From the NCBI GenBank assembly GCA_048940445.1, contig JBHLON010000061.1, positions 1 through 13,773 on the forward strand: a DNA stretch of 13,773 nucleotides, written 5' to 3'. Below, one piece after another: positions 1-13,029 of this stretch. The stretch comes from Promethearchaeota archaeon. GTDB lineage: Archaea; Asgardarchaeota; Lokiarchaeia; Sigyniarchaeales; SOKP01. The translations under genes and the position numbers were made by a program. Position 1 is the stretch's first letter; every line of letters starts with the position of its first letter. Below the pieces are notes generated by a model. That model saw only the letters and a program-made list of their open reading frames with translations, made no database searches and had not been told where the DNA came from.

Positions 1-935
1 TTAAGAAGAGCAAGTAAATTTTCTTCACCTCTCTTAGCTTTTGCATTAATAACTTCCCCTTTAGAAAAAGTTAATGTGAAATCCGAAAAATTATATTGGG
101 AATTTGGCCTAGTAGCAGTAACAACACCTTCAGTTTCATCTTTTAGAGGTAAAGTAAATACTTCTTCAGTGGGTATGTTTGCTACATACTTAATTCCATT
201 TTGTGTTGTAGCTCTTGCACTATGCCAGATATGGTCCTTTGGCAGATAAACTGTCAAATTTGTTCCAGGAGCTACAAATTTCAAAGCTTTATAATGTTTT
301 TGATTTAAATATTTACTCCTGGTTGCAAGCTCTTTAATATGTGATTCCCAAGTAGCAACCGGATCTTCTTCCTTGATTCGACAAATCTCAAAAAGAACAT
401 CCCAGAATTTTTCTTTTCTATTTTCTGGAGGTAGATTGGGGAATACTTTATCTACCCAACCTTCAACTGGAGCCGTAATTATTGTACAATTCATCACATC
501 TTTATGACGTAGATCTAAAAAGGGTTTATAATGTTTACCAAAAGTCCGTCTATATGTAGTAATTAATTCAAAAGGTTGCTTTTCCAATAAATCTGGATTC
601 ATTGCAGCAATTATAAGTATAGCTCCACCGGATTTAGCAACCTCAATTGCTATATCATATCTCCATTTTGGAAATTCTTCGAGAGTATCATTTGGAGCAT
701 TTTGAAACCGAGTTAAGGTCAGTTGTTCATCATCCCACAACACATCAACAAATTTGGCTCCTAGTTGATAAGCCTTTTTTACAATTAAACGTACAAGGGG
801 GTATAATTCAATGGGAGTACCATACCTTAGAAAAGGCGGTCCAATCAACAATTTTTGTCCTGATTGCAAATTAAGTCCTATTTTTAGAATAACATCAGCG
901 TATTTTTCTAAATTTTTTTCAAATTCTAAAGACAA
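1..935 (-). CDS. Aminopeptidase, peptidase family M29 (AmpS/PepS/aminopeptidase T-like), 3' end truncated by the window edge
   Basis: Manual translation of the - strand from TTG at 935 gives MSLEFEKNLEKYADVILKIGLNLQSGQKLLIG..., later VANIPTEEVFTLP (~147-185) and FTLTFSKGEVINAKAKRGEENLLALL at the edge, all in the same frame. NxPTEEVFT and the N-terminal 'LEKYA..I...G.N.Q.GQ' are M29 hallmarks. It is absent from the ORF track because the stop lies outside the window. Confidence 0.92.
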   Translation of the reverse strand, partial: MSLEFEKNLEKYADVILKIGLNLQSGQKLLIGPPFLRYGTPIELYPLVRLIVKKAYQLGAKFVDVLWDDEQLTLTRFQNAPNDTLEEFPKWRYDIAIEVAKSGGAILIIAAMNPDLLEKQPFELITTYRRTFGKHYKPFLDLRHKDVMNCTIITAPVEGWVDKVFPNLPPENRKEKFWDVLFEICRIKEEDPVATWESHIKELATRSKYLNQKHYKALKFVAPGTNLTVYLPKDHIWHSARATTQNGIKYVANIPTEEVFTLPLKDETEGVVTATRPNSQYNFSDFTLTFSKGEVINAKAKRGEENLLALL

Positions 936-1097: not shown

Positions 1098-2297
1098 ATG
1101 AATCTTTTTAAGAATAAGAGAGCACTTAGTATAACATCTCTCTCTCATTTTTTAAATGATGGAAATTTCACGATATTGTTGCTAATTTATACATATGCTA
1201 TAAGTTCCATTGGCACATCACAATTTCTAATTGGAATTATGGCGGGTTCATTTTTTATTGCTTCTGCAATAGCATCACCTATAATTGGACGTTTTGCGGA
1301 TAAGTTTCAACATCCAACTCGCTTGATTTCTTTTGGTATATTGTTGTGGGGAATAGGCATAATTACGTTAGGGTTTGCTACGAGTTTTGGGATGTTCCCT
1401 TTGATGTTTACGGCAGTTATTATATCGGGATTTTCTTCTGCGTTCTATCATCCCATAGGAGGACTCGTACTTTCATCTACTTATGGAGTTGATGCTGGAT
1501 CGGCATTAGGTTTTAATGGGGCCTTAGGAAGTATTGGGAGGGCTATTTATCCATCGATAACATTATTTATTTTTGAATTTTTTACGGGATCATCTATTGA
1601 TATGGCATATACCCTTTTAATCATGGGTTTAATTTCTTTAATTGCTTCTATTCCCATTTTTACAATTAAAGTAGAATCTAATATTTCTGAAAATGGGCAG
1701 AGCATTAGTAAAGTTGAAGAAGAGAAAACAAAAAAGTTTTCTTCAATGCTTATTCTATTTACAATTATAATGCTTTTTGTAGGGATATTTTTACAAGGAG
1801 TGTTCCAGTTTCTTCCCACGTTATTAGTAAGTACGTTTAATTATAAATATGGAATTGATCTTGGGTTGATATTAACCATCACACTATCAGCTTCAGTTAT
1901 AGGACAACCAGTCTTAGGATTAATATCCGATAAATTTGGTAGAAAATATTCTTTTTTTGGAGCAGTTTTGTCTTCTTTAATTTTCTTTTTTCTGTTCTTG
2001 TATTTCCATTCTCTCGTTTGGTTAACAATTTTTGGTTTTTTTGCATTCAATAGCTTTCCTATGATTTTATCTTTAATAGGAGATCTTTTTCCAAAAAGAA
2101 AGAGAGGTTTTGCAGATTCATTTGTATGGGGTCTGGGAACTTCTGGAGGAGGAGCTATCGGTCCAATTTTAGCAGGTTATTTAGCTGAAATTATAGGACT
2201 AGCTAATGCAATGACAATAGTAACATGTTTGGGTATAATCCCATTAATTCTTATCTTAATCATACCTAATCCTAAAAAAAAAATTCATGAAAATTAG
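1098..2297 (+). CDS. MFS transporter (about 12 TM; Fsr/fosmidomycin-resistance-like subfamily)
   Basis: 399 aa with two hydrophobic 6-TM halves separated by a charged loop. It has MFS motif A-like GRFADKF and GLISDKFGRK, plus N-terminal HFLND and FYHP motifs typical of Fsr-like MFS proteins. Confidence 0.93.
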   Translation: MNLFKNKRALSITSLSHFLNDGNFTILLLIYTYAISSIGTSQFLIGIMAGSFFIASAIASPIIGRFADKFQHPTRLISFGILLWGIGIITLGFATSFGMFPLMFTAVIISGFSSAFYHPIGGLVLSSTYGVDAGSALGFNGALGSIGRAIYPSITLFIFEFFTGSSIDMAYTLLIMGLISLIASIPIFTIKVESNISENGQSISKVEEEKTKKFSSMLILFTIIMLFVGIFLQGVFQFLPTLLVSTFNYKYGIDLGLILTITLSASVIGQPVLGLISDKFGRKYSFFGAVLSSLIFFFLFLYFHSLVWLTIFGFFAFNSFPMILSLIGDLFPKRKRGFADSFVWGLGTSGGGAIGPILAGYLAEIIGLANAMTIVTCLGIIPLILILIIPNPKKKIHEN

Positions 2298-2427: not shown

Positions 2428-3627
2428 TTAAAAGTCGATATCTTTACCTTCAAACGCGTATTTGTAAATGTTTTCGAATTCTGCTTTTGATGGCAACCTT
2501 GGACACATTGAACCGCTGGCATCCTGAAAGCATAAATTAACTAAGGTATCAAGATTTTTATCTAAGTCATCTCTTGAAATACCTAAATCTTGAATCTTTT
2601 CTGGAAAACCTATTTCTCTAATCAAGGCTTTTAACTTTTCAATAACTAAATGAGCAGCTGTTATATCATCATCATCCCACTTAGCCCATCCTAATTGTTT
2701 TGCCATTTTCGAATAGATTTTGACTGTTTTATCGTCCTTATCTTGACTATTCATACAATATTGTGTTACATATTTTAGCATAATTCCCACACATTTTCCA
2801 TGAGGAATGGTAAAAACAGCTCCAAGACAATGTCCTGTGGTGTGTCCAATATGCAAATTTGCATTACCAAATGCTAGTCCTGCCATTGTAGCTGCCTGAT
2901 GCAAATAGTCTCTAGCTTCCTTATTTTTTCCATCATTATAAGCAATAGGTAAATATTTAAAGCTTAATTCAATTGCTTTGGTAGCTAGAGCATCGCTAAA
3001 TTCGTTTTTCCCATTTGCTATCATACTCTCTATGGCGTGTGCTACTATATCCATACCTGTATCCAATGTTAAACTAGGAGGCATTCCTATAGGGAAAATA
3101 GGGTCTAATATTGCATATGAGGGGACTAATCCTCTATGAGCTTGTATTAATTTTTGCCAAACTCCATCATTATACCTTGAAATAACAGCGTCATAAGTAA
3201 CATCAGCTCCAGTTCCAGATGTGGTTGGAATAGCAATAAACTTAGCTTTTTTACCCAAATCGTAGAGATCTTTATTAAAGATATGAAGATCATCTATTTC
3301 ATATTGAGGATATTCATACATTGCCCATATAACCTTAGCTGTGTCGATGACAGAGCCGCCTCCTAGAGCAATAATTAGGTCAGGAGCATAAGTGTTACAT
3401 AATTGTTTGACTTTCAATACAACCTCTTCTCTTGGATCAGGTTGGACTTCATTAAATATGTCAAAAGTTTTTCCCAATTTTTCTAATTTATCTGTTAAAA
3501 TCTTAAGATATCCTAACTCTTTAATCACTCCGTCTGTTATGATGTAACATCTATTTCCCATGATATTTTCTAAAAAATCTAATGCGTCTTCCCCATAAAT
3601 TATATCTGGACTAAAAAAGTACCACAA
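2428..3627 (-). CDS. Iron-containing (group III) alcohol dehydrogenase
   Basis: GGGSVIDTAK and PTTSGTG NAD-binding motifs. Metal ligands lie in GMDIVAHAIE (D,H), HIGHTTGH and PHG. TTG start preceded by a GAAGTGA SD-like sequence. Confidence 0.95.
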   Translation of the reverse strand: MWYFFSPDIIYGEDALDFLENIMGNRCYIITDGVIKELGYLKILTDKLEKLGKTFDIFNEVQPDPREEVVLKVKQLCNTYAPDLIIALGGGSVIDTAKVIWAMYEYPQYEIDDLHIFNKDLYDLGKKAKFIAIPTTSGTGADVTYDAVISRYNDGVWQKLIQAHRGLVPSYAILDPIFPIGMPPSLTLDTGMDIVAHAIESMIANGKNEFSDALATKAIELSFKYLPIAYNDGKNKEARDYLHQAATMAGLAFGNANLHIGHTTGHCLGAVFTIPHGKCVGIMLKYVTQYCMNSQDKDDKTVKIYSKMAKQLGWAKWDDDDITAAHLVIEKLKALIREIGFPEKIQDLGISRDDLDKNLDTLVNLCFQDASGSMCPRLPSKAEFENIYKYAFEGKDIDF

Positions 3628-3680
3628 TTCTATAAATCACTTCTATATTGTTATTAGACTTTTATATTAATTTTAAATTT

Positions 3681-3687
3681 AAAAAAA
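3681..3687 (-). terminator. Possible archaeal oligo-U terminator (T7 on the - strand) after the SCP2 gene
   Basis: A7 on the + strand, 14 nt downstream of the SCP2 stop at 3702. T-runs are frequent in this AT-rich DNA. Confidence 0.25.
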
Positions 3688-3701
3688 TTAGGATTTCTGG
3701 A

Positions 3702-4103
3702 TTATAAAAATTCTGTTGGTACATTTTGAAGGCTATTAACGATTTCCTGAGCAGCTCTTGTGGCTCTCATCAATTTTGCCATATTTCCTACAAGTCTTAA
3801 TTTTCCCGACATTACTCCTTGAATAGTATCTAATTCTTTTTTAGCAATTTTTACCCAGTTATCATATGGTCCAGAAAGCGTAAATTCCACATCCACTTTC
3901 TCACCCTCCTCTAATAATTTAACACTAGTGCATTCTCCATGATAAAGTCCTAGAAAAAATCTAACTTCATGATCTAAGGGACCACTAGGTTCGATTACAC
4001 AGAGCATATCACCTTCCCACCAAGACGCAGCTTCATTATAAGCAGGATTGTCGTTAATAGCCTGTCCAAAAGCATCTAACCATTCTTTTGTCAAAATTTT
4101 CAT
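3702..4103 (-). CDS. SCP2 sterol/lipid-binding domain protein (stand-alone)
   Basis: 133 aa. It shows the N-terminal 'EWLDAFGQAIN...Y...WEGD' and C-terminal 'DTIQGVMSGKLRLVGNMAKLMR' SCP2 signatures. SD GAGGTG lies upstream (4109-4114). Confidence 0.9.
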   Translation of the reverse strand: MKILTKEWLDAFGQAINDNPAYNEAASWWEGDMLCVIEPSGPLDHEVRFFLGLYHGECTSVKLLEEGEKVDVEFTLSGPYDNWVKIAKKELDTIQGVMSGKLRLVGNMAKLMRATRAAQEIVNSLQNVPTEFL

Positions 4104-4181
4104 TCATAAACACCTCAATAATTATATTTTCTAATTTCGCTTTTAAACTATTTAAAATTTTATAGAATTTAACAAAATAAG

Positions 4182-5378
4182 TTAGGTTAAAGTTAAATCA
4201 AGATGGATATCTGTTAAAGGATAAGATACACAGGGATGAATGAATCCAAATTCCTTGTCGACTTCACGGATAGTAACCCAAGGAGGTATAAAAACTTCTC
4301 CAGAGATCAATTTTGTTCTGCATAAAGCACAGTCTCCTGAACGACAGCCATTTTCAATATGGACTCCGGATAATTTTTCACGCTCTATACTATTTAAAAT
4401 TGGTTCTATGCATGAAGATTTAAATTCTATTCTTTCAGTATCACTGCCCTTCCTAAAATCAACTGTTACATTAATTTCTTTTAAAGCATCAACTTCTTTT
4501 GGCCAACCCATAATTTGGGTAATATCATCTGGAATTCCAAATGCTTCATAATACATTTTATGTTCTGGTACCCCTAAGGCTCTCAGTTCTGCTTTAATAA
4601 ATTCATACATAGGACGATTTCCGACAACATAGTAATACTTGTTCTTTATTGATCCTATTTCATTTAATATCTTATCTCTAGTTATGAACCCACATTCTCC
4701 ATTCCAACTAGAATCTGGCTCAGACAATATAAATTTTATTTTAATATTTGATCTTCTGTTTTGTATATCCTCTAATTCTTCTCGGAATAAAATATCCTTT
4801 TCAGTTAAACACCCGTAAATAAGTGAAACTTTTAAAGGCAAAGCTTTCTCAGAAATATTTCTTAGCATTGAAACAAACGGAGTTATCCCACATCCTCCAG
4901 CAATGAATACAAGATCTTTTCCATGAAATAAGGGGTTATAATACAAATTTCCTAGAGGTTCAGTTACTTCATAAATTTCACCTATCTCTACATATTCGAA
5001 CAAGTAGGGACTAACATAGCCTCCTTGTTTCTTTCTAATGCCTAACTCATAATAAGCGAGCTGATTAGGTGATGATACTATTGAGTAAGGACGTGAGGTT
5101 ATAACATTATTAATTTTAACAGTAATTCCTATATATTGACCAGCCCGAAATGGTGCTAAAGGCTTTTTTGGTTTTGCTGATATAAAACGTAATAATTTTG
5201 TATCATGAGAAAGTTCCTCAATATCAGTTAGTTTTAATAATTGATTTCCTGGATGTATCCTTTCACATAAATTTTCTAAACCATCAAAATACCAAGGTGT
5301 CGGTTGAACTTCTTCGCGTGTTTTTTTTAGTTTCTCAGCTTTTTGATACTTCTTTATATCTTCCATCATTTTTACCAT
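4182..5378 (-). CDS. FAD/NAD(P)-binding ferredoxin-reductase-family oxidoreductase with C-terminal plant-type [2Fe-2S] domain (PaaE/KshB/Hcr-like architecture)
   Basis: RPYS FAD motif, GGYVS, IAGGCGITP NAD motif, YEAF, and C-terminal CRSGDCALC...CVS (Cx4Cx2C...C). The true start may be ATG 5369 or 5366, since a GGGAG SD lies within the end of the upstream gene. Confidence 0.92.
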   Translation of the reverse strand: MVKMMEDIKKYQKAEKLKKTREEVQPTPWYFDGLENLCERIHPGNQLLKLTDIEELSHDTKLLRFISAKPKKPLAPFRAGQYIGITVKINNVITSRPYSIVSSPNQLAYYELGIRKKQGGYVSPYLFEYVEIGEIYEVTEPLGNLYYNPLFHGKDLVFIAGGCGITPFVSMLRNISEKALPLKVSLIYGCLTEKDILFREELEDIQNRRSNIKIKFILSEPDSSWNGECGFITRDKILNEIGSIKNKYYYVVGNRPMYEFIKAELRALGVPEHKMYYEAFGIPDDITQIMGWPKEVDALKEINVTVDFRKGSDTERIEFKSSCIEPILNSIEREKLSGVHIENGCRSGDCALCRTKLISGEVFIPPWVTIREVDKEFGFIHPCVSYPLTDIHLDLTLT

Positions 5379-6925
5379 CTCCCTTCAATTTTATCTTTTA
5401 AATAAAGACCTGAAGCAATTCTCCCACCTAGTATCGTGGTAGAAAAACCTCCTCCAAAATTTGTCCATGCACCTACTTGATAAAGCCCAGGAATTGCACC
5501 TCTGCTAGTTAATCTAAATAATGGTCCATTAATGACATCTTGAGTTGTACCATAAATTGCGCCTTCAATATTTTTGGAATATCGGTAATAAGTTAGAGGA
5601 CTCGCAGCTACTGCAACTTCTATGTAATCTCGAATTTCCGGGCATATTGTATTTTCCACTAAGGAGATCATACCATTTGCAATCTCATCTTTAAGTTTGA
5701 AGTATTGATCTGGAGGGACACTTTGCCATAATTTACCCATCTGTAATGTGGTTAATACAAGTTGAGTTGTCCCCGGAGGTGAAATATCCTCATAAATATG
5801 ATTATAACAAGCTGCTACAATATATTTTGGAGCTTCTAGTTTATGAAACATTTCAAAAGCCTCATTCATATCATAGTTATTATTTATGAACGTCTCATGA
5901 GCGGTTAAACCTAAATCTCGATAAGAAGCATTCAATCCAATATAAACCGAGAACCCAGAAGGTCCAATCTCTGGAGCGTAAATCTTCTTTTTGTATTCTT
6001 CAGGAACAACCTCAGAAGGTAACATTTTCATGGCGGTGCATATTGGGTTCACATTAGAAATTAATGCATTACATTTGTAAATATCTCCATTAATAAGTTC
6101 CACACCGCAAACTCTACTATTTTCTACTAATATCTTATTCACCAAAGCGTTATACCTTATTTCTCCACCAAATTTTTCAAATGCTTCGACCATTGCATTT
6201 ACTAGTGAATGTGATCTTCCCAAAGGAAATGCTGCGCCCCATTTTAAATAGAAGATCAACAAAGCAATAAAGGCATATGCATTTAATCTATTTGGTGGTA
6301 ATCCAACATACCCCCAAAGTTGAGATATTAGAGCAATTAACTTCTTGTTAGTAAAGAATTTTGAGTATAGTTCAGATAAGGTGATGCCTGAGACACGTGG
6401 AAGCCAAGGATGCTCTTTAAGGACTTCTTGTGGTTTAAATTTTCCTCTTTTTGAGGCAATATATTCAATTCCTTTTAATACCGCTTCACACATCTCCATA
6501 AATTCTTCTATACCTTTTTTTTCGGAGGGAAAAAGCTCAATTAATTTTTCCGTGTATTCTTCTACACCCAGTGGCATTGTAATGTCAAATCCATCGAGAA
6601 ATACACTTCGATAAAATTCGGGTACTTGTTTAAATTGCAATCTCTCTGGAATAATTTCTAGTCTTTCCAAAAAGCGATACAAACTGCCTTTATTATCTTT
6701 TGTGCCTATATCACTAAGTTCATGAAGTGCTCCTTCAAACTCAAATCTTCCTCTTACGAAAGAAGTGGCAAAACCTCCTGGAACATTATGTTTTTCGAGC
6801 AGTAAAACTTTTTCTCCTCTTAATACCAATTGACATGCTGCACCAAGTCCTCCAAGCCCAGCTCCAATAACTATAACAGGATATGTAGAAATAACTCTAT
6901 TGTTATCATAAATACTATTTATCAT
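5372..6925 (-). CDS. FAD-dependent oxidoreductase, phytoene desaturase/carotenoid isomerase/retinol saturase (CrtI/CrtISO/RetSat) superfamily
   Basis: 517 aa with VIGAGLGGL Rossmann motif, LLEKHNVPGG...GRFEFE, SPLTYYRY...GAIYG and C-terminal GLYQVGAWT..GGG FAD-contact segment. The substrate cannot be determined from sequence. Confidence 0.88.
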   Translation of the reverse strand: MINSIYDNNRVISTYPVIVIGAGLGGLGAACQLVLRGEKVLLLEKHNVPGGFATSFVRGRFEFEGALHELSDIGTKDNKGSLYRFLERLEIIPERLQFKQVPEFYRSVFLDGFDITMPLGVEEYTEKLIELFPSEKKGIEEFMEMCEAVLKGIEYIASKRGKFKPQEVLKEHPWLPRVSGITLSELYSKFFTNKKLIALISQLWGYVGLPPNRLNAYAFIALLIFYLKWGAAFPLGRSHSLVNAMVEAFEKFGGEIRYNALVNKILVENSRVCGVELINGDIYKCNALISNVNPICTAMKMLPSEVVPEEYKKKIYAPEIGPSGFSVYIGLNASYRDLGLTAHETFINNNYDMNEAFEMFHKLEAPKYIVAACYNHIYEDISPPGTTQLVLTTLQMGKLWQSVPPDQYFKLKDEIANGMISLVENTICPEIRDYIEVAVAASPLTYYRYSKNIEGAIYGTTQDVINGPLFRLTSRGAIPGLYQVGAWTNFGGGFSTTILGGRIASGLYLKDKIEGRW

Positions 6926-7022
6926 TAAAGATCATTCTATCAGATAACATTTAAAATTATAGATTTGGCTCTAAATTTTACATTTTAGGAAATAATTTTT
7001 AAAGAATTTCATTAATTATAAA

Positions 7023-7838
7023 TTACTTACCAATAAAATTAGGAGCTCTTTTTTCTTTAAGCGCTTGCATTGACTCATTAAAATCTTTTGATCTAAAAGT
7101 TTTTCTTAGAGCTTTGTTTTCTAAATCGAGAGTATCTGAGATAATTTCTCTAAAATAATGATGCATTGTTTTTTTCATTAATTTTATAGATAAATATGGC
7201 CCTCTTGGAGGAATCAATTTTAGCGCTTGTTCTCTGGTATATGGAATTAATTCATCTGGAGGTAATATTTTATTAACTAAACCAAGTTCGAAGGCTTGTT
7301 GGGCTGTTATTTTATCTCCAAAATAGATAATCTCTTTTGCTCTTTGAAAACCTATGTAAAAAGGTAATATAAAAGTGTTAGCAAATTCTGGAATAATTCC
7401 TCTTTTAACAAAAAAGAATCCAAGCCAAGCATCTTCAGACATATAAATCAAATCAGCTCCCACGAGTGGCATTGTAATACCTCCTCCAATAGCCATACCA
7501 TTTATTGCAACTATAACCGGTTTATTAAAATCCCATAACTTCAAACATAGTTTTTTTTGTGCAATATCCATGATATTTACCTCTGGATATTTTTTCATTT
7601 CTTCAAGCATTTCTGGCTTGAAATAACCTCCAGAAGTAAAAGCATTCCCTTTTGGGTCACCAGTTATTATAAGAACTTTGGCATTTTTGTCTTTTTCCAT
7701 ATCTTCCAAGACAGTGTATATTTCCAAGAATGTGATATAAGTAACAGCATTTCTTATATCTGGTTTTGAAATAGTTACTGTATATATGCCATTTTCTTCT
7801 TTTTCATATAATATATCTTCGAATTCTTCGACATTCAT
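7023..7838 (-). CDS. Crotonase-superfamily protein, enoyl-CoA isomerase-type active-site signature
   Basis: KPVIVAINGMAIGGG, ADLIYMSEDA, GIIPE and ITAQQAFELGLVN motifs. The hydratase glutamates are absent (T122, F143) and E151 is present. Confidence 0.9.
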   Translation of the reverse strand: MNVEEFEDILYEKEENGIYTVTISKPDIRNAVTYITFLEIYTVLEDMEKDKNAKVLIITGDPKGNAFTSGGYFKPEMLEEMKKYPEVNIMDIAQKKLCLKLWDFNKPVIVAINGMAIGGGITMPLVGADLIYMSEDAWLGFFFVKRGIIPEFANTFILPFYIGFQRAKEIIYFGDKITAQQAFELGLVNKILPPDELIPYTREQALKLIPPRGPYLSIKLMKKTMHHYFREIISDTLDLENKALRKTFRSKDFNESMQALKEKRAPNFIGK

Positions 7839-7926
7839 CTTATATTTCTAATATTATCGAATGGATTAAAAATTAATATAATTTAAACTACAAAATTAAA
7901 ATAAAAATAATTTAAGGATTCGCTCT

Positions 7927-9630
7927 TTATTTCTCTTCTTCTCGTAATGCTCTTTTTAGAACTTTTCCTATCATTGTAGTAGGTAACTCTTCAGAAAATT
8001 CCCAAATTTTAGGAACTTCATATTTTGCTAAATTTTGTTTAGCATATTCCTGTATTGAAGCTTTAATCTCTTCAGTTGGATCAATTCCTTGCTTTAATTG
8101 AATGACAGCTTTAACTATTTCTGATCCCGGGCGTTCTGGATTAGGAACACCTATGATTGCACACATTTGGATCTCTGGGTGCTTTGTCAAGACATCCTCA
8201 ACATGAACGCTATATACTTTAAATCCACTCACGACAAGCATATCTTTTGTCCTATCTACAATAGTCAAATACCCTTCTTCATCAAAAACACCTACATCAC
8301 CTGTGTGTAACCACCCATCTATGTAAGTTTTTGCAGTAGCTTCAGGTTTGTTGTAATAGCGTTTTGTGATTTGAGGACCCTTCAATAATACTTCGCCTGG
8401 CTGACCTATAGGTACTTCTTCTCCTGTTTCTACATCTGCGAGTTTAACATCTGTATCCGGTAAAGGAAGACCAACAGAACCAATTTTTTTCTTTCCTAAG
8501 GCAGGGTTAACTGTTGCCAGAACAGCAGATTCTGTCATTCCATAGACCTCTACAAACTTATTCTGGGAGTAGAAATCTTTCTCAAAGTCTCTTACAGCTT
8601 CAGCCGGGAAAGGAGCTGCTCCACTAACCCATATACTTATATTTTGTAAGATTTCAGGAGGAATATTTTTCGATTTAGGATTTCTTTGAATCATTAGAAA
8701 CAAAGTTGGTACATTACCAAAACAAGTTGGCTTTCTTTCAACTATCTCTTTAATCATATGTTCAGTATCTCTCGGATTTGCTATAATGATATGAGAAGAA
8801 CCAATATAAGTTAGAAAAAGACCAATGAATAGACCAGCAATATGAAAATATGGAAAAGCACTCATAGTAATGTCAGTACCCTTTATTCGATTAAGCCATA
8901 CATCAAATTGATGCATATTTGCAGCTAAATTAAAGTGAGTAATTTCGGTACCTTTAGGTGTTCCAGTTGTCCCTCCAGTATACTGAATTAAGGCTAAATC
9001 ATTTTTTGAATCAATCGACACTTTTTTAAGGTCGATTGGAGTTTCCATTGCTTCTAAAAAGGGAATAACTTTCTTTCCAGGCCACGGGTTCATTTTCCCT
9101 TTTGGGATTTTTTTAATTAATTTTCCCATGAAAACCTTAAAACTGGAAAATCCCATATACTCTGACACATTAGTTGGAATAATTACCTCGAGATCTGGCA
9201 CTTTTTCTAGAAATTTTGGATATACTTTTTCGTAAACTATATCCATTGTGACTACAAATTTAGCCTTACAGTCATTTAGTTGGTAAGCCATTTCAACAGG
9301 ACTTAAAAGTGGAGATAAGCCAGTGGATACTCCCCCCGCCAAGAATGTCCCATATAATGCAAATAAATACTGGGGGGTATTTGGAATATTCATGGCAACC
9401 ACATCTCCTTTCTTTAAACCATTTTTCTGTAGAAACGTTGCAAACGCTTGAGCGCTTTTTAATACATCTTTAAATAGGATTTTATTATCCATAAAATAAA
9501 ATCCGACTCTATCTCCATACTTTTCCATTGCTTTTGCTAATAAAGTTCCCAAATCTTCTGTAGGATATTCTAGCGTTTTAGGAACATGAGTATCGTATGA
9601 CTTTGTCCAAAATCTTTCTTGACTCATCAT
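7927..9630 (-). CDS. Long-chain fatty acid--CoA ligase (FadD-like AMP-forming acyl-CoA synthetase)
   Basis: YTGGTTGTPKG P-loop, YGMTE, GEVLLKGPQ, WLHTGD, DRTKDML and terminal GKV lysine motifs in 567 aa. Confidence 0.95.
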   Translation of the reverse strand: MMSQERFWTKSYDTHVPKTLEYPTEDLGTLLAKAMEKYGDRVGFYFMDNKILFKDVLKSAQAFATFLQKNGLKKGDVVAMNIPNTPQYLFALYGTFLAGGVSTGLSPLLSPVEMAYQLNDCKAKFVVTMDIVYEKVYPKFLEKVPDLEVIIPTNVSEYMGFSSFKVFMGKLIKKIPKGKMNPWPGKKVIPFLEAMETPIDLKKVSIDSKNDLALIQYTGGTTGTPKGTEITHFNLAANMHQFDVWLNRIKGTDITMSAFPYFHIAGLFIGLFLTYIGSSHIIIANPRDTEHMIKEIVERKPTCFGNVPTLFLMIQRNPKSKNIPPEILQNISIWVSGAAPFPAEAVRDFEKDFYSQNKFVEVYGMTESAVLATVNPALGKKKIGSVGLPLPDTDVKLADVETGEEVPIGQPGEVLLKGPQITKRYYNKPEATAKTYIDGWLHTGDVGVFDEEGYLTIVDRTKDMLVVSGFKVYSVHVEDVLTKHPEIQMCAIIGVPNPERPGSEIVKAVIQLKQGIDPTEEIKASIQEYAKQNLAKYEVPKIWEFSEELPTTMIGKVLKRALREEEK

Positions 9631-9877
9631 TATTCACTTATTTATTAAAATTCAATTTTTTATTAATTATTTCGCTCTTTTTATTTTTAAAAGTTGATTC
9701 TTGATTGATTAAAGAAATTGACAATAAATATTTTTTTAATTTCTAAGATAAATTCTACAAAATAGTCTATTTGGCAACATTGGAAAAAAGCTTGGTGATT
9801 TACTAATTAAACTCATTAGAATAAAAAATCATACACTTGGGATCATTGAACGCTTATATAGATTGAAATAAAAATAA

Positions 9878-10249
9878 TTATTTGGTTTTTAAAACAATTG
9901 CTATTGCTCTTGTTAGACGAATCACATCCATTACCTTTCCTTTTTCAACAGTAATTTGTTCTCGGGAAATCGCATGAGTAAAATCTCCTTTACCCTCACA
10001 AATTCTCACTATTGCGGAAGGGTCTCCAGACATCAGCACCTTTGCATCAGGTTTAGTACCATTAAGTAATTCGATTTTTCGACTTTTAACTTCTAAATAG
10101 AAAGGAGTTTGATTATCAAGATTGAATTGAAATGTCATTTCCCAGTCTATATCTTTTCCTGCAATATTCGTTACAAAAACTTCTTGTGCTTTTGGGTTCG
10201 TATTTAATTTATTTATTATATTATTTAGGTAATCTTTAGCTAGTTCCAT
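9878..10249 (-). CDS. SCP2 sterol/lipid-binding domain protein (stand-alone)
   Basis: 123 aa with the 'TFQFNL...FYLEVK...PDAKVLMS...GKGDFTHAISREQITVEKG' SCP2 pattern. It starts 2 nt after the DUF35 stop. Confidence 0.82.
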   Translation of the reverse strand: MELAKDYLNNIINKLNTNPKAQEVFVTNIAGKDIDWEMTFQFNLDNQTPFYLEVKSRKIELLNGTKPDAKVLMSGDPSAIVRICEGKGDFTHAISREQITVEKGKVMDVIRLTRAIAIVLKTK

Positions 10250-10251
10250 AA

Positions 10252-10746
10252 TTAACTCCCTCCTTCATATTCTGGTTTTGAAATCCAATTTTCATATTCA
10301 TCCTCTGGTACAAAGAAAAAGTCAGTCATCTTTCCCTCCCTTTCCTTACTAAAAACCGCTCTGACTCTTTTTCCCTTCCTTATCTTTGATGGAACTAAAT
10401 TTTCAGAAAAAATTCCTTGAAGCAGAGCTGTTTCAGCACCATCAAGTTTTATAAAACCTATACCATAAGGAATCGCTTTAATAAATGCTGAAGTAGTATA
10501 CCAGACAATTGTACTCACCTCAATGGTTCCAGTTTGTTTTAACTCCACCCAATCTGCTGGAGCATAGCAATCAGAACAATTAATCCTTGGAGGCATCCAT
10601 GTTTTACCACACTTTTTACATTTTGTGCCTAAAAGCTTTTTATTATTCATTAATTCAATGAAAAATTTGGATTGTCCTCCCATTGTATATTTATAATCAA
10701 TTTTTATTTTGTCCCTTATTTGATGATCTTGAAATTCTTTGCTCAT
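10252..10746 (-). CDS. DUF35-family Zn-ribbon/OB-fold protein (thiolase/aldolase partner subunit)
   Basis: CKKC...PPRINCSDC zinc ribbon followed by an OB-fold (GTIEVSTIV...PYGIGFIKLDG...GKRVRAVF). It has an ATGA 4-nt overlap with the upstream thiolase-fold gene. Confidence 0.93.
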   Translation of the reverse strand: MSKEFQDHQIRDKIKIDYKYTMGGQSKFFIELMNNKKLLGTKCKKCGKTWMPPRINCSDCYAPADWVELKQTGTIEVSTIVWYTTSAFIKAIPYGIGFIKLDGAETALLQGIFSENLVPSKIRKGKRVRAVFSKEREGKMTDFFFVPEDEYENWISKPEYEGGS

Positions 10747-12014
10747 GATTTTTTCAACCCCTCCTCATTTGCCATTACAATAATCGCAGCATATGCCGCT
10801 CCTGGACCTCCTATTGAATGGGCTATAGATCTACCTTTATCAATTGTTACTTGGTGTTTACCAGCTTCTCCTCTTAACTGAAGTGCAGCTTCACCAGTAC
10901 TCATAATACCAGTGGCACCAACCGCATGTCCACATCCTATCAACCCTCCTGAAGGACAACATGGAAGTTCTCCTTCTAGCCAAGGACCTTCACCCGATTT
11001 TTCATAAGTTTTTTCAATCCAAGGACCACCCTCTCCAAATGGAACAAATCCAAGCTCTTCATATGAGATGACTTCTTGACCCGAAAATGCATCATGGAGT
11101 TCAGCACAATCTATTTGCATCTTTATTTTATTATATTCTAGACCTGCCATTTTATATGCTTCTTTCGCAGCAAAAATATTAGAATATAATCTACCCATAT
11201 CCTCTCGATTACCAATGAAACAATCTGTATTGGCTGCGCCTACTCCAGTAATCCAAATTGGTTTCTCAATTTTGAGTTCTTTTACTTTACTTTCATTTGC
11301 TAAAATTAATGCTGCTGAAGCCTCTGAATAAAGACAGCAATCCAACAATTTGAAGGGATAACAAATGATTCGTGAGTAAAGTACGTCTTCTACTGTAATT
11401 TCCATAGGAGATTGAGCCTTTGGGTTTAATAAAGCATTGCCATGATTCTTAACGCTGACGTATGCCATTTGTTTTTCTGAAGGATTCCCAAATTCTTCAT
11501 AATGTGCATTTACCATAGAGACATAGGAACTTGCTGCCATCATTCCCATCGGATACTCATACGTCATGTCAGCAGAATATGCAATCGCATTTAATACTTC
11601 AGGAGTCGTTGTACCCGTTTGTTCGTCATAACAATCGTTACACTTCTCAAGTCCTATACATAAACATAAATCACTCAATCCAGATGCTACTTCTGCAAAT
11701 GCCATTCGAACAGTATATCCTCCTGTGGCGCCACCCGTCGCTACTCTCGTACCAGGCTTATTATTCATTCCAAGATAGCTATTAGTAAAAATATCAGGCA
11801 TGAATTGACGCTCAAAGAGTTCATTGTAAATCCCATATACAGTAGACTGAAGATCTTTATGACTAATTTCGGCTCCATTCTGATTTGCGTCTTCCAGAGC
11901 TAGTTTTGTTGCATCATAAGCCAGTTCAAAATAAGTTTTATCTAAATATCTTGCTTTAAAAGGTGTAATTCCTATACCTATTATTGCTACTTTTTGCAAA
12001 ATTTTTTCACTCAA
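10743..12014 (-). CDS. SCP2/SCPx-type thiolase-fold protein lacking the nucleophilic cysteine (possible acyl-CoA aldolase)
   Basis: VAIIGIGITPF N-terminus, VKNHGNALLNPKAQ, AELHDAF, PSGGLIGCGHAVGATG and AHSIGG motifs. RVATGGATGG occupies the place of RVE..CASG. TTG start. Confidence 0.9.
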   Translation of the reverse strand: MSEKILQKVAIIGIGITPFKARYLDKTYFELAYDATKLALEDANQNGAEISHKDLQSTVYGIYNELFERQFMPDIFTNSYLGMNNKPGTRVATGGATGGYTVRMAFAEVASGLSDLCLCIGLEKCNDCYDEQTGTTTPEVLNAIAYSADMTYEYPMGMMAASSYVSMVNAHYEEFGNPSEKQMAYVSVKNHGNALLNPKAQSPMEITVEDVLYSRIICYPFKLLDCCLYSEASAALILANESKVKELKIEKPIWITGVGAANTDCFIGNREDMGRLYSNIFAAKEAYKMAGLEYNKIKMQIDCAELHDAFSGQEVISYEELGFVPFGEGGPWIEKTYEKSGEGPWLEGELPCCPSGGLIGCGHAVGATGIMSTGEAALQLRGEAGKHQVTIDKGRSIAHSIGGPGAAYAAIIVMANEEGLKKS

Positions 12015-12225: not shown

Positions 12226-13029
12226 ATGTCTCATCTTGATAATTGGGCGGGAAAATATTTTAGCACTCAAGGAAGTTATATTCGGTATTTTCGCACTAAT
12301 GGAGACAAACCTTCAATGATATTACTCCATGCGGCAATGGATAATGGTTTGTGCTGGAAAAGAGTTACAAAAGCATTAGAAAATGATTTTGACATTGTCA
12401 TGCCAGATGCACGGGGACATGGAAAATCTATTTCGTATCAAACAGAATTCCATTTATCGGATTTGGTTGATGACATAGTAGAATTAATTAAAGGTTTAAA
12501 ATTTACTTCTATAATTGTTATGGGACATTCTATGGGAGCGCAGGTGGCTACTGAGCTTGGTGCTCGATTCCCTAACTTTGTCAAAAAACTTGTTTTAGAA
12601 GATCCTGGCTATTATTTCAAAAATCCAACATTCTTAGATTTGTTATATTATAAACGGAGGATTCGAAGAATTAAAAAGAGTACAATTGCCCAAATTCGAA
12701 AAATGTGCGATCAAATTCACAATGGTTGGGATGAAGAAGATAAAAACTTATGGGTTAAGGCTCAAAAAGAATGGGCTGAAAATGAATCGAAATCAAAATC
12801 TTTGAATCCAAAAAGGAATTGGCATGTAATTTTTCCCAAAGTGAAAGCACCCACATTGCTTCTTATTTCTGAAAATGGTATAGTTAAAAGACGAGAAGTA
12901 GAACAATATATTACAGAATTTAGTAACGCTAAATATGAATTTATAGAAAATGCTGGACACCATATACATCGAGAAAATTTCGAAGCATTTATGAAAACTG
13001 TACAAGAATTTTTGAAACAAAATCAGTAA
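12226..13029 (+). CDS. Alpha/beta-fold hydrolase (esterase/lipase-like)
   Basis: GHSMG nucleophile elbow, PDARGHG, LVLEDP and C-terminal AGHHIH catalytic His. 267 aa, transcribed divergently from the lipid cluster. Confidence 0.93.
   Translation: MSHLDNWAGKYFSTQGSYIRYFRTNGDKPSMILLHAAMDNGLCWKRVTKALENDFDIVMPDARGHGKSISYQTEFHLSDLVDDIVELIKGLKFTSIIVMGHSMGAQVATELGARFPNFVKKLVLEDPGYYFKNPTFLDLLYYKRRIRRIKKSTIAQIRKMCDQIHNGWDEEDKNLWVKAQKEWAENESKSKSLNPKRNWHVIFPKVKAPTLLLISENGIVKRREVEQYITEFSNAKYEFIENAGHHIHRENFEAFMKTVQEFLKQNQ

Follow-up and report, generated by a model that had tools for sequence, protein, structure and literature searches.

Flavoenzymes of the CrtI superfamily such as CrtI, CrtD, CRTISO and RetSat act at C=C bonds or allylic carbons of isoprenoids, and CRTISO requires a reduced flavin without any net redox change. 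In the anoxic terpene breakdown of Castellaniella defragrans, the limonene dehydrogenase CtmAB, a COG1233 flavoenzyme, works with the 2Fe-2S ferredoxin CtmE and the reductase CtmF, and a ctmE mutant is unable to grow on limonene (PMC4109377). In the sterol Δ24-desaturase of Sterolibacterium, the His of a short motif near the N terminus binds the flavin covalently (PMC11061730). A hydratase of the same superfamily, the hydroxyarchaeol synthase Has, needs reduced flavin, again without net redox (10.1101/2025.10.20.683597). Here we describe a gene cluster of a Promethearchaeota archaeon in which a CrtI-like flavoprotein is encoded directly beside an FNR-type reductase and among genes for acyl-CoA enzymes. 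The cluster lies on contig JBHLON010000061.1 (C36), one complete contig of 13,773 bp in a 3.64-Mb genome that is 93% complete; this whole stretch of DNA is hereafter called the window.

A preliminary description of the window had placed nine co-oriented genes in it, and open reading frame (ORF) calling and Pfam confirmed both their coordinates and their domains. The nine ORFs occupy positions 2428-12014 of the minus strand, from the thiolase-fold gene to the iron-type alcohol dehydrogenase gene, and their products all score above the curated Pfam cut-offs.

10743..12014, minus strand: ThlX, a thiolase-fold protein of 423 aa (Pfam thiolase N- and C-terminal domains; alignments to 7yvy and 6esq).
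10252..10746, minus strand: DUF35 protein of 164 aa (Pfam zf-ChsH2 and OB, with a zinc ribbon, C43/C46/C57/C60, and an OB fold).
9878..10249, minus strand: SCP2a, a divergent SCP2-fold carrier of 123 aa (Pfam SCP2, 28.3 bits against a cut-off of 21.3).
7927..9630, minus strand: FadD-like acyl-CoA ligase of 567 aa (Pfam AMP-binding).
7023..7838, minus strand: crotonase of predicted isomerase type, 271 aa (Pfam ECH_1; T122, F143, E151).
5372..6925, minus strand: CrtI-family (COG1233-type) flavoprotein of 517 aa (Pfam Amino_oxidase and NAD_binding_8; NCBIfam; fold search).
4182..5378, minus strand: FNR-type reductase with a C-terminal plant-type [2Fe-2S] domain, 398 aa (Pfam FAD_binding_6, NAD_binding_1 and Fer2).
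3702..4103, minus strand: SCP2b, an SCP2-fold carrier of 133 aa (Pfam SCP2; match to 2cx7).
2428..3627, minus strand: iron-type alcohol dehydrogenase (Fe-ADH) of 399 aa (Pfam Fe-ADH; NCBIfam; match to 3zdr).

The genes for ThlX and DUF35 overlap by 4 nt and those for the CrtI-like protein and the FNR by 7 nt. The remaining intergenic gaps measure 2, 247, 88, 97, 78 and 74 nt, a spacing that fits co-transcription as one to three units.

The cluster is a conserved unit and not a chance run of paralogues. At about even odds (a probability of roughly 0.5), we read it as an accessory acyl-CoA module for an unsaturated hydrophobic carboxylic acid in a Loki-type Asgard family, with a route made up of a ligase, an isomerase and an NAD(P)H-driven CrtI-FNR saturase. 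It is uncharacterised: the literature searches turned up neither a characterised fusion of CrtI-like and FNR domains nor an SCP2 cluster from an Asgard archaeon, and no paper describing the system was found.

A scan of one genome per species yielded 39 loci in other Promethearchaeota, with CrtI-like proteins 72-94% identical to that of the window. The FNR orthologue lies directly downstream of the CrtI-like gene in 38 of these loci, the exception having no DNA there, and the crotonase orthologue lies directly upstream in 35. Three of the four loci lacking the crotonase have almost no upstream DNA; the fourth (L029) has ~8 kb and still none. An orthologue of the CoA ligase is present in 24 of the 39. 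Only the tight core of ligase, isomerase-type crotonase, CrtI-like flavoprotein and reductase is near-universal in related loci. ThlX, DUF35 and SCP2a have orthologues in 12, 13 and 14 of the 39 loci, respectively, and the triad occurs in 10 of the 19 loci having at least 9 kb of upstream DNA; DUF35 stays beside ThlX in 13 loci and SCP2a comes after DUF35 in 14. Orthologues of SCP2b and Fe-ADH were found in 10 and 12 of 32 loci, SCP2b always adjoining Fe-ADH. All nine genes, with their order kept, are present in six species (L002, L005, L006, L008, L009, L011), and in four further loci (L027, L030, L031, L032) the order is shuffled with the cluster genes still together, which argues for selection on their linkage. 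The preliminary description had staked its proposal on conservation of gene order and content among relatives, and both are conserved across these loci; its nine-gene island stands in the six species, but not as an invariant unit, given the counts for the triad and for SCP2b and Fe-ADH.

Orthologues at least 70% identical occur in 49 of 68 genomes of the window's family and in 25 of 27 of its genus. Other families of the phylum have only paralogues of 27-47% identity, in a sample of 301 phylum genomes. The nearest relatives of the CrtI-like protein all come from Promethearchaeota and other Asgard-labelled metagenome-assembled genomes, which confirms the assignment of the DNA to an Asgard archaeon.

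The partnership of the CrtI-like protein and the FNR is the only proposed step with direct support. The reductase has RPYS at 96, GGCGITP (GGxGxTP) at 161-167 and the cysteines C345/C350/C353/C383 (Cx4Cx2C...C), all of these cofactor motifs being invariant in 35 sequences; its RxYS, GGxGxTP and Fe-S ligands are those of the PaaE/phthalate dioxygenase reductase/BenC class. Its solved relatives (cytochrome b5 reductase, MmoC, BenC and carbazole dioxygenase reductase) are all NADH-oxidising donors. An exhaustive profile-free search followed by Pfam revealed many homologues of 850-930 residues that are fusions of a CrtI-like domain with FAD_binding_6, NAD_binding_1 and Fer2. The bacterial fusions occur in both domain orders (P0123, P0133, P0131, P0141), each half being 33-38% identical to the matching window protein over its full length. 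One variant, P0257, combines the CrtI-like domain with another kind of reductase and a BFD-type [2Fe-2S] domain. An open frame of 875 residues is also present in one Asgard genome.

Complex prediction with the CrtI-like protein and the FNR gave a score of 0.87, against 0.00 for the best of three controls; of the solved complexes 58 of 80 attain the mark used, as do 2 of 110 mismatched pairs, counts that are rough since author-made alignments were used. The prediction runs agree in at least 95% of contacts, with a partner pLDDT of at least 86. In the model, extra N-terminal helices of the reductase (residues 3-42) pack against residues 400-448 of the CrtI-like protein, and its Fe-S loop (342-354, 369-377) comes to lie opposite residues 55-62 of that protein, an invariant stretch (S55-F56-x-R58) beside the flavin motif. 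The modelling supports formation of a complex between the two proteins. Reductases of this class usually serve a Rieske or di-iron oxygenase. A role of the FNR in feeding an unseen oxygenase of this lineage was considered and rejected, as neither the window (Pfam) nor any of the 39 loci contains a Rieske or di-iron gene, and the CrtI-like protein is the partner to which the fusions link the FNR.

Two distant homologues have other neighbours. In Lokiarchaeum ossiferum (L045:8782-12734), a CrtI-like/FNR pair of 48% identity lies beside genes for a Rieske/VanA_C protein, a tocopherol-cyclase-like protein and another amine-oxidase-fold protein, a context that hints at prenyl-lipid chemistry. In the bacterial locus L051 (4243-10005), the homologue carries a Pyr_redox_2 reductase and a BFD-type [2Fe-2S] domain on the same chain, and its neighbours include a type III polyketide synthase and methyltransferases.

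The CrtI-like protein belongs to the CrtI superfamily, with an amine-oxidase-like FAD fold of the COG1233 type. It has GxGxxG at residue 21 and invariant S55, F56, R58, F63 and H68, and PF13450 and PF01593 score above their cut-offs. Nevertheless it falls below the curated cut-off of every NCBIfam carotenoid model, including its best match, carot_isom TIGR02730 (143.8 bits against 586.9), and TIGR02734 (133.2 against 238.1). Its AlphaFold2 model has a pLDDT of 92. The top three structures of a fold search were 4rep (TM 0.79/0.84), 4dgk and 3ka7, of which 4rep and 4dgk are carotenoid desaturases and 3ka7 is an uncharacterised Methanosarcina oxidoreductase; in the PDB sequence search CrtI 4dgk and CrtD 4rep matched with E values of 2e-22 and 2e-19 at 16-20% identity. 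H68 closes the motif F63-E-G-A-L-H68 and is invariant in 53 sequences (the window's and those of 52 relatives). The same F-D/E-x-G-x-H motif is probably carried by RetSat. CrtI (4dgk), in contrast, has Thr instead of His68; it lacks an FNR partner, and its electrons go to quinones or O2. RetSat and CRTISO, likewise of the CrtI family, saturate or isomerise isoprenoid C=C bonds with the help of reduced flavin. They differ from it in that no carotenoid or retinoid genes lie near the window cluster, the electron donor is encoded next door and the substrate is likely a CoA ester.

Compared with characterised members by hidden Markov model scores, PDB matches and one motif only, the protein resembles CtmAB and the Δ24-desaturase as a CrtI-superfamily, O2-independent flavoenzyme with a presumably hydrophobic, unsaturated substrate. 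By motif only, it also has the F-x4-H spacing of their flavinylated His (PMC11061730), although the other positions of the consensus G-F-L/R-x-N/S-T/L-H-A differ. The likeness to CtmAB extends to a genetic tie to a [2Fe-2S] protein and an NADH-type reductase, and to the alcohol dehydrogenase, CoA ligase and crotonases that follow in the limonene pathway (PMC4109377). Unlike CtmE and CtmF, however, the two electron-transfer functions here reside in one adjacent polypeptide, which is sometimes fused to the enzyme. CtmAB and the Δ24-desaturase are, moreover, substrate-oxidising heterodimers of two adjacent paralogous subunits (~26-27% identical), whereas the window has a single subunit: the cluster, like the genome as a whole, contains just one CrtI-like gene, and the next match, on another contig, is only 22% identical. 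A second paralogue, 27% identical, adjoins the fused enzyme only in the bacterial locus L043. Also unlike the CtmAB host, the host of the window is presumably a strict anaerobe in which no acceptor of positive potential is obvious, so that reduction is the likelier direction.

The crotonase is predicted from its active-site residues to be an isomerase of the PaaG/DCI kind, as the preliminary description had suggested. T122 and F143 stand at both hydratase Glu positions and E151 at the position of PaaG Asp136, a pattern invariant in 34 orthologues; for these assignments we take rat hydratase numbering and PaaG Asp136/DCI Asp204 as the reference. The best PDB matches are Thermus PaaG structures. 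The single acidic residue and the absence of both hydratase Glu are shared with PaaG and Δ3,5-Δ2,4-dienoyl-CoA isomerase; the differences are a Glu in place of the Asp, the lack of phenylacetate pathway genes and NCBIfam matches that are all below cut-offs. The best NCBIfam matches of the ligase are all long-chain fatty-acid CoA ligases, all under their equivalog cut-offs. SCP2b matches Thermus SCP2 2cx7 (E 3.6e-15, PDB sequence search), and Fe-ADH is most like the alcohol dehydrogenase domain of AdhE (3zdr, E 1e-75), whose GGGS and metal-ligand blocks it retains.

Several other contexts also link the pair to acyl-CoA enzymes. On a Syntrophales contig (L041), genes for an acyl-CoA dehydrogenase, a CoA-transferase, a CoA ligase, a crotonase and the fused enzyme stand in a row. 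L043 carries genes for DUF35, two thiolase folds, DUF35, a crotonase, an NMO-type reductase and the fused enzyme, and a third contig has two ligases, an unfused CrtI-FNR pair, an NMO protein and a crotonase. The crotonases of L041 and L043, the two with readable DNA, are also of the isomerase type. Within the genome under study, a mini-cluster on C49 (L046:3088-9883) encodes a ligase (57% identical), an acyl-CoA dehydrogenase, a cation-efflux protein, an SDR and an isomerase-like crotonase (58%). The acyl-CoA dehydrogenase and the SDR here occupy the place of the CrtI-FNR pair, suggesting that the pair may fill a C=C redox slot.

Enoyl reductases of two other types occur near related clusters. 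FadH-type genes (Oxidored_FMN and Pyr_redox_2) are found in five loci (L028, 12867-14882; L026; L034; L040; L021) and NMO-type genes in four (L005, 3-1037; L006; L008; L009), which suggests substrates with several double bonds. A search of this assembly with the relatives' FadH-like protein found no FadH-type gene; the genome has four NMO paralogues (C15, C62, C13, C79).

Thiolase folds that have Gly for the nucleophilic Cys and a DUF35 partner are described in the steroid side-chain enzymes Ltp2-ChsH2 and Sal-Shy. They are retro-aldolases with a catalytic Tyr in YDHF (Ltp2) or YDCY (Sal) and a second Tyr or a Cys as acid (PMC12329534). ThlX aligns end to end with the archaeal thiolases 7yvy (E 4e-44) and 6esq (E 4e-41) and has G95 at the position of their acylated nucleophilic Cys, which bears out the Cys-less thiolase fold noted earlier; lacking that Cys, it cannot thiolyse. 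It reads HDAF (H307) where SCP2-type and archaeal thiolases read HDCF, and H363 and H399 are kept. Gly95 and HDAF are the same in all 13 ThlX orthologues. Gly for Cys and an adjacent DUF35 gene are likenesses to Ltp2 and Sal. ThlX, however, is much nearer to the archaeal thiolases than to Ltp2 (6ok1, 2e-18), has His instead of the catalytic Tyr in all orthologues, has no equivalent of Sal's Cys, and is accompanied by a free-standing DUF35 protein rather than one forming the C-terminal part of a MaoC hydratase. The proposed assignment to the Ltp2/Sal-type aldolases was therefore not upheld, and an aldolase role is one that we infer by analogy. Its closest sequence relatives, the archaeal thiolases, share with it the thiolase-DUF35 gene pair (10.1101/2024.07.05.601840) but possess the nucleophilic Cys; the archaeal arrangement also differs in that no HMG-CoA synthase, ketoreductase or dehydratase gene lies beside ThlX, and an SCP2 gene follows. 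That order, thiolase fold-DUF35-SCP2, is kept in 12-14 loci and recalls SCPx (thiolase plus SCP2), except that the thiolase fold here is Cys-less. SCP2a itself had no PDB sequence match.

Seven of the eight thiolase-fold genes of this genome (C4:49340, C1:670, C104:8817, C71:11704, C71:16099, C108:1739, C108:2971, C36:10779) lack the nucleophilic Cys; only the C104 copy reads GACASSG together with HDCF. A second, convergent module stands beside the core in most related loci (23-27 of 39, e.g. L002:14518-19835). It encodes a crotonase that keeps both hydratase Glu, a pair of DUF35 proteins and a pair of thiolase folds bearing Tyr at YDxF, followed by BKACE, and is by its residues a predicted hydratase/aldolase set of the heteromeric Ltp3-Ltp4 kind. 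In the genome under study this module is broken: one thiolase fold (92.6% identical) lies on C71 beside BKACE (L048:1733-5985), and TIR-domain and SLOG genes occupy the expected place of the four missing genes. A steroid-specific reading was rejected, given the absence of the Ltp2/Sal residues from ThlX and of MaoC hydratase, KstD/Ksh-type or other steroid genes from the loci examined; nothing found points specifically to the steroid substrate that had been among those proposed.

A working route can be drawn from these assignments, and we infer all of its steps and their order, the CrtI-FNR partnership excepted. The FadD-like ligase would form a CoA thioester, in which the PaaG/dienoyl-isomerase-type crotonase, with E151 as single acid, would shift a double bond into or out of conjugation without hydration. 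The CrtI-like/FNR complex would then saturate a C=C bond of the chain in the manner of retinol saturase, electrons passing from NAD(P)H through FAD and [2Fe-2S] to FAD. ThlX and DUF35, with SCP2a, might perform non-thiolytic C-C chemistry (a retro-aldol reaction) or merely hold the acyl-CoA, and SCP2b and Fe-ADH would handle a hydrophobic alcohol or aldehyde entering or leaving the route. The Pfam scan of the window ORFs found no acyl-CoA dehydrogenase, 3-hydroxyacyl-CoA dehydrogenase, two-Glu hydratase or Cys-thiolase, so that the cluster is indeed no β-oxidation operon; a MaoC hydratase is likewise absent from the window. These β-oxidation enzymes are encoded elsewhere in the genome, which has 12 acyl-CoA dehydrogenases, at least six 3-hydroxyacyl-CoA dehydrogenases and eight thiolase-fold genes (the window's ThlX among the eight), so the route need not be self-contained. 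The general idea of a non-β-oxidation route for a bulky unsaturated lipid holds, backed by the CrtI-family prior, but the step-by-step pathway of the preliminary description is not supported in the form given.

Within the CrtI-FNR step, reduction by NAD(P)H is likelier than oxidation, for three reasons. The reductase comes from a family of electron donors; it is a stoichiometric and in many cases fused partner; and an allylic reaction in the oxidative direction requires an acceptor of positive potential, so that it is regarded as unfeasible where the habitat is highly reduced (PMC12583861). As to the substrate, the comparison points weakly to a methyl-branched isoprenoid acid, e.g. one derived from phytol or archaeal lipids. 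This lean comes from two observations: the characterised CrtI-family enzymes found all work on isoprenoid double bonds, and the hydratase with its Ltp-like thiolase-fold pair beside the core in most relatives is chemistry that could pass a β-methyl branch. The isoprenoid link of the CrtI family is a prior on the substrate class and not a test of it, and it is the only real evidence on this point. The further suggestion that Loki-type Asgard archaea break down isoprenoid (β-methyl-branched, polyunsaturated) lipids without O2, with a two-component, retinol-saturase-like enzyme acting on chain double bonds of the CoA esters and Cys-less thiolase-fold/DUF35 lyases replacing the methyl-blocked dehydrogenase and thiolase steps, is tentative and rather doubtful.

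Several observations weigh against the saturase module as we read it. CRTISO, and likewise Has (10.1101/2025.10.20.683597), set precedents in which the reductase could serve flavin activation only, and the spacing of the invariant H68 is that of the covalent-flavin His of oxidative enzymes. ThlX, lacking the catalytic Tyr, falls outside the known aldolase families, and the resemblance of Fe-ADH is to AdhE-type enzymes for short chains. About ten relatives, several of the six nine-gene species among them, carry a four-gene, 4-kb ABC transporter of polar-amino-acid type (SBP_bac_3, two permeases and an ATPase; L002:3719-7199) between SCP2a and the ligase, an insert that the window does not have. 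Finally, the bacterial homologues in L049 and L050 stand alone and that of L051 lies beside a type III polyketide synthase, none of them with a ligase or crotonase; together with the L. ossiferum locus, these unrelated contexts indicate that the pair is a general module, with the acyl-CoA link applying to only part of the family.

In a different view of the central step, the CrtI-like enzyme is no saturase but performs a redox-neutral reaction with reduced flavin (cis/trans or positional isomerisation as in CRTISO, or hydration as in Has), or acts as a CtmAB-like anoxic allylic hydroxylase or desaturase, the FNR only maintaining the flavin in its active redox state or removing electrons. The superfamily offers precedents in CtmAB with CtmE/F (PMC4109377), the Δ24-desaturase (PMC11061730) and Has (10.1101/2025.10.20.683597), to which H68 adds its position at the spacing of the flavin-binding His. 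An alcohol arising by hydroxylation would, furthermore, put Fe-ADH, an aldehyde oxidiser and the ligase in sequence, as in limonene -> perillyl alcohol -> perillate -> perillyl-CoA. Yet CtmAB and the Δ24-desaturase are paralogous heterodimers, and the gene here is single-copy; oxidation needs a positive-potential acceptor (PMC12583861), unlikely in a presumably fermentative or syntrophic archaeon; a stoichiometric, often fused partner exceeds the need of an occasional activator; and the reductase family is known as an NADH-oxidising donor. We regard this view as unlikely. About as improbable, and a shade more so, is that the chemistry is as we propose but the substrate is a straight-chain polyunsaturated fatty acid, CrtI/FNR standing in, without orthology, for a reductase of 2,4-dienoyl-CoA or another enoyl-CoA. 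The crotonase would then be the subsequent Δ3,Δ2-enoyl-CoA isomerase and the core an auxiliary set feeding a β-oxidation encoded elsewhere. E. coli FadH passes electrons from NADPH through FAD, Fe-S and a second flavin to the acyl-CoA C=C bond, which the NAD(P)H-FAD-FeS-flavin path of the pair parallels, although the folds are unrelated (OYE and Pyr_redox in the one, CrtI and FNR in the other). A reductase and an isomerase-type crotonase after a FadD-like ligase mirror the established eukaryotic DECR plus ECI logic; acyl-CoA and 3-hydroxyacyl-CoA dehydrogenases and one Cys-thiolase are encoded elsewhere in the genome; and the FadH role, on the search described above, appears vacant in this assembly. 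The five related loci, however, hold a true FadH-type gene beside the CrtI-FNR pair, so the pair is not a simple substitute. None of the characterised CrtI-family enzymes found acts on a straight-chain acyl-CoA, and the Cys-less thiolase folds, the SCP2 proteins and Fe-ADH would be left unexplained.

Cultured relatives are reported to be amino-acid fermenters, and the cluster might serve such fermentation, for example through branched-chain or lysine-derived acyl-CoA, rather than lipid breakdown; related loci hold the polar-amino-acid-type ABC transporter, BKACE and a β-eliminating lyase, and an M29 aminopeptidase gene adjoins the cluster in the window. This is quite improbable, considering that 2-oxoacid oxidoreductases yield acyl-CoA directly and leave a long-chain-type ligase unneeded, that hydrophobic substrates are what the pair of SCP2 carriers and the CrtI-family enzyme speak for, and that the transporter insert is absent from the window and many loci. 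A biosynthetic cluster, in which a ketothiolase/DUF35 assembly of the archaeal fatty-acid-synthase type would work with CrtI-FNR as enoyl-CoA reductase, has its model in the ketothiolase-DUF35-based fatty acid synthase of Sulfolobus and in the average of 3.8 ketothiolase/DUF35 pairs per Asgard genome (preprint 10.1101/2024.07.05.601840). Gly replaces the nucleophilic Cys in all ThlX orthologues, however, leaving no acyl-enzyme for a Claisen condensation, and in nearly all thiolase folds of the genome; the CoA ligase and the isomerase-type crotonase are typical marks of catabolism, and the window holds no ketoacyl-CoA reductase or dehydratase (Pfam). Such a function is very improbable. Least credible of all is a chance juxtaposition of unrelated paralogues: the ThlX triad and the SCP2b/Fe-ADH pair are indeed missing from many related loci, but up to 38 of 39 species have these orthologues side by side again, even after rearrangement, CrtI-like and FNR genes are fused in bacteria, and bacterial loci show the same associations.

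To our knowledge, the electron donor of vertebrate RetSat is still unidentified. If the saturase reading is correct, the cluster would represent a new functional class in the CrtI/RetSat superfamily, namely a saturase with a known dedicated electron donor, as well as a route by which unsaturated or isoprenoid lipids are turned over without oxygen in marine sediments. The fused bacterial forms offer an easy experimental handle, as a single polypeptide can be expressed. With seven of eight thiolase folds Cys-less here, thiolase/DUF35 pair counts taken as a sign of Asgard fatty-acid synthesis overstate ketothiolase capacity, and the published Asgard ketothiolase/DUF35 counts may mostly count non-thiolases.

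Three further genes flank the cluster.

12226..13029, plus strand: α/β hydrolase of 267 aa, divergent flank (Pfam).
1098..2297, plus strand: MFS transporter of 399 aa, convergent flank (Pfam).
3..935, minus strand: M29 aminopeptidase (Pfam).

The hydrolase and the MFS transporter each have an orthologue in only one of the 39 related loci (L040 for the transporter) and are not part of the conserved unit; a reading of both as pathway genes was rejected on this ground, and the initial ester hydrolysis drops out of the route first proposed. Other MFS genes, possibly not homologous to the window's transporter, occur near the fused enzyme in two unrelated loci (L041, L044). Scans of the whole window for tRNA genes and Rfam families gave zero matches; the last 740 bp of the contig (13030-13773) are AT-rich and contain no ORF above 65 aa. 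Among the related loci, L035 (1296-5300) and L037 (6853-12400) carry a mirror-image duplication of the CrtI-FNR pair, with a second copy that is 56-60% identical.

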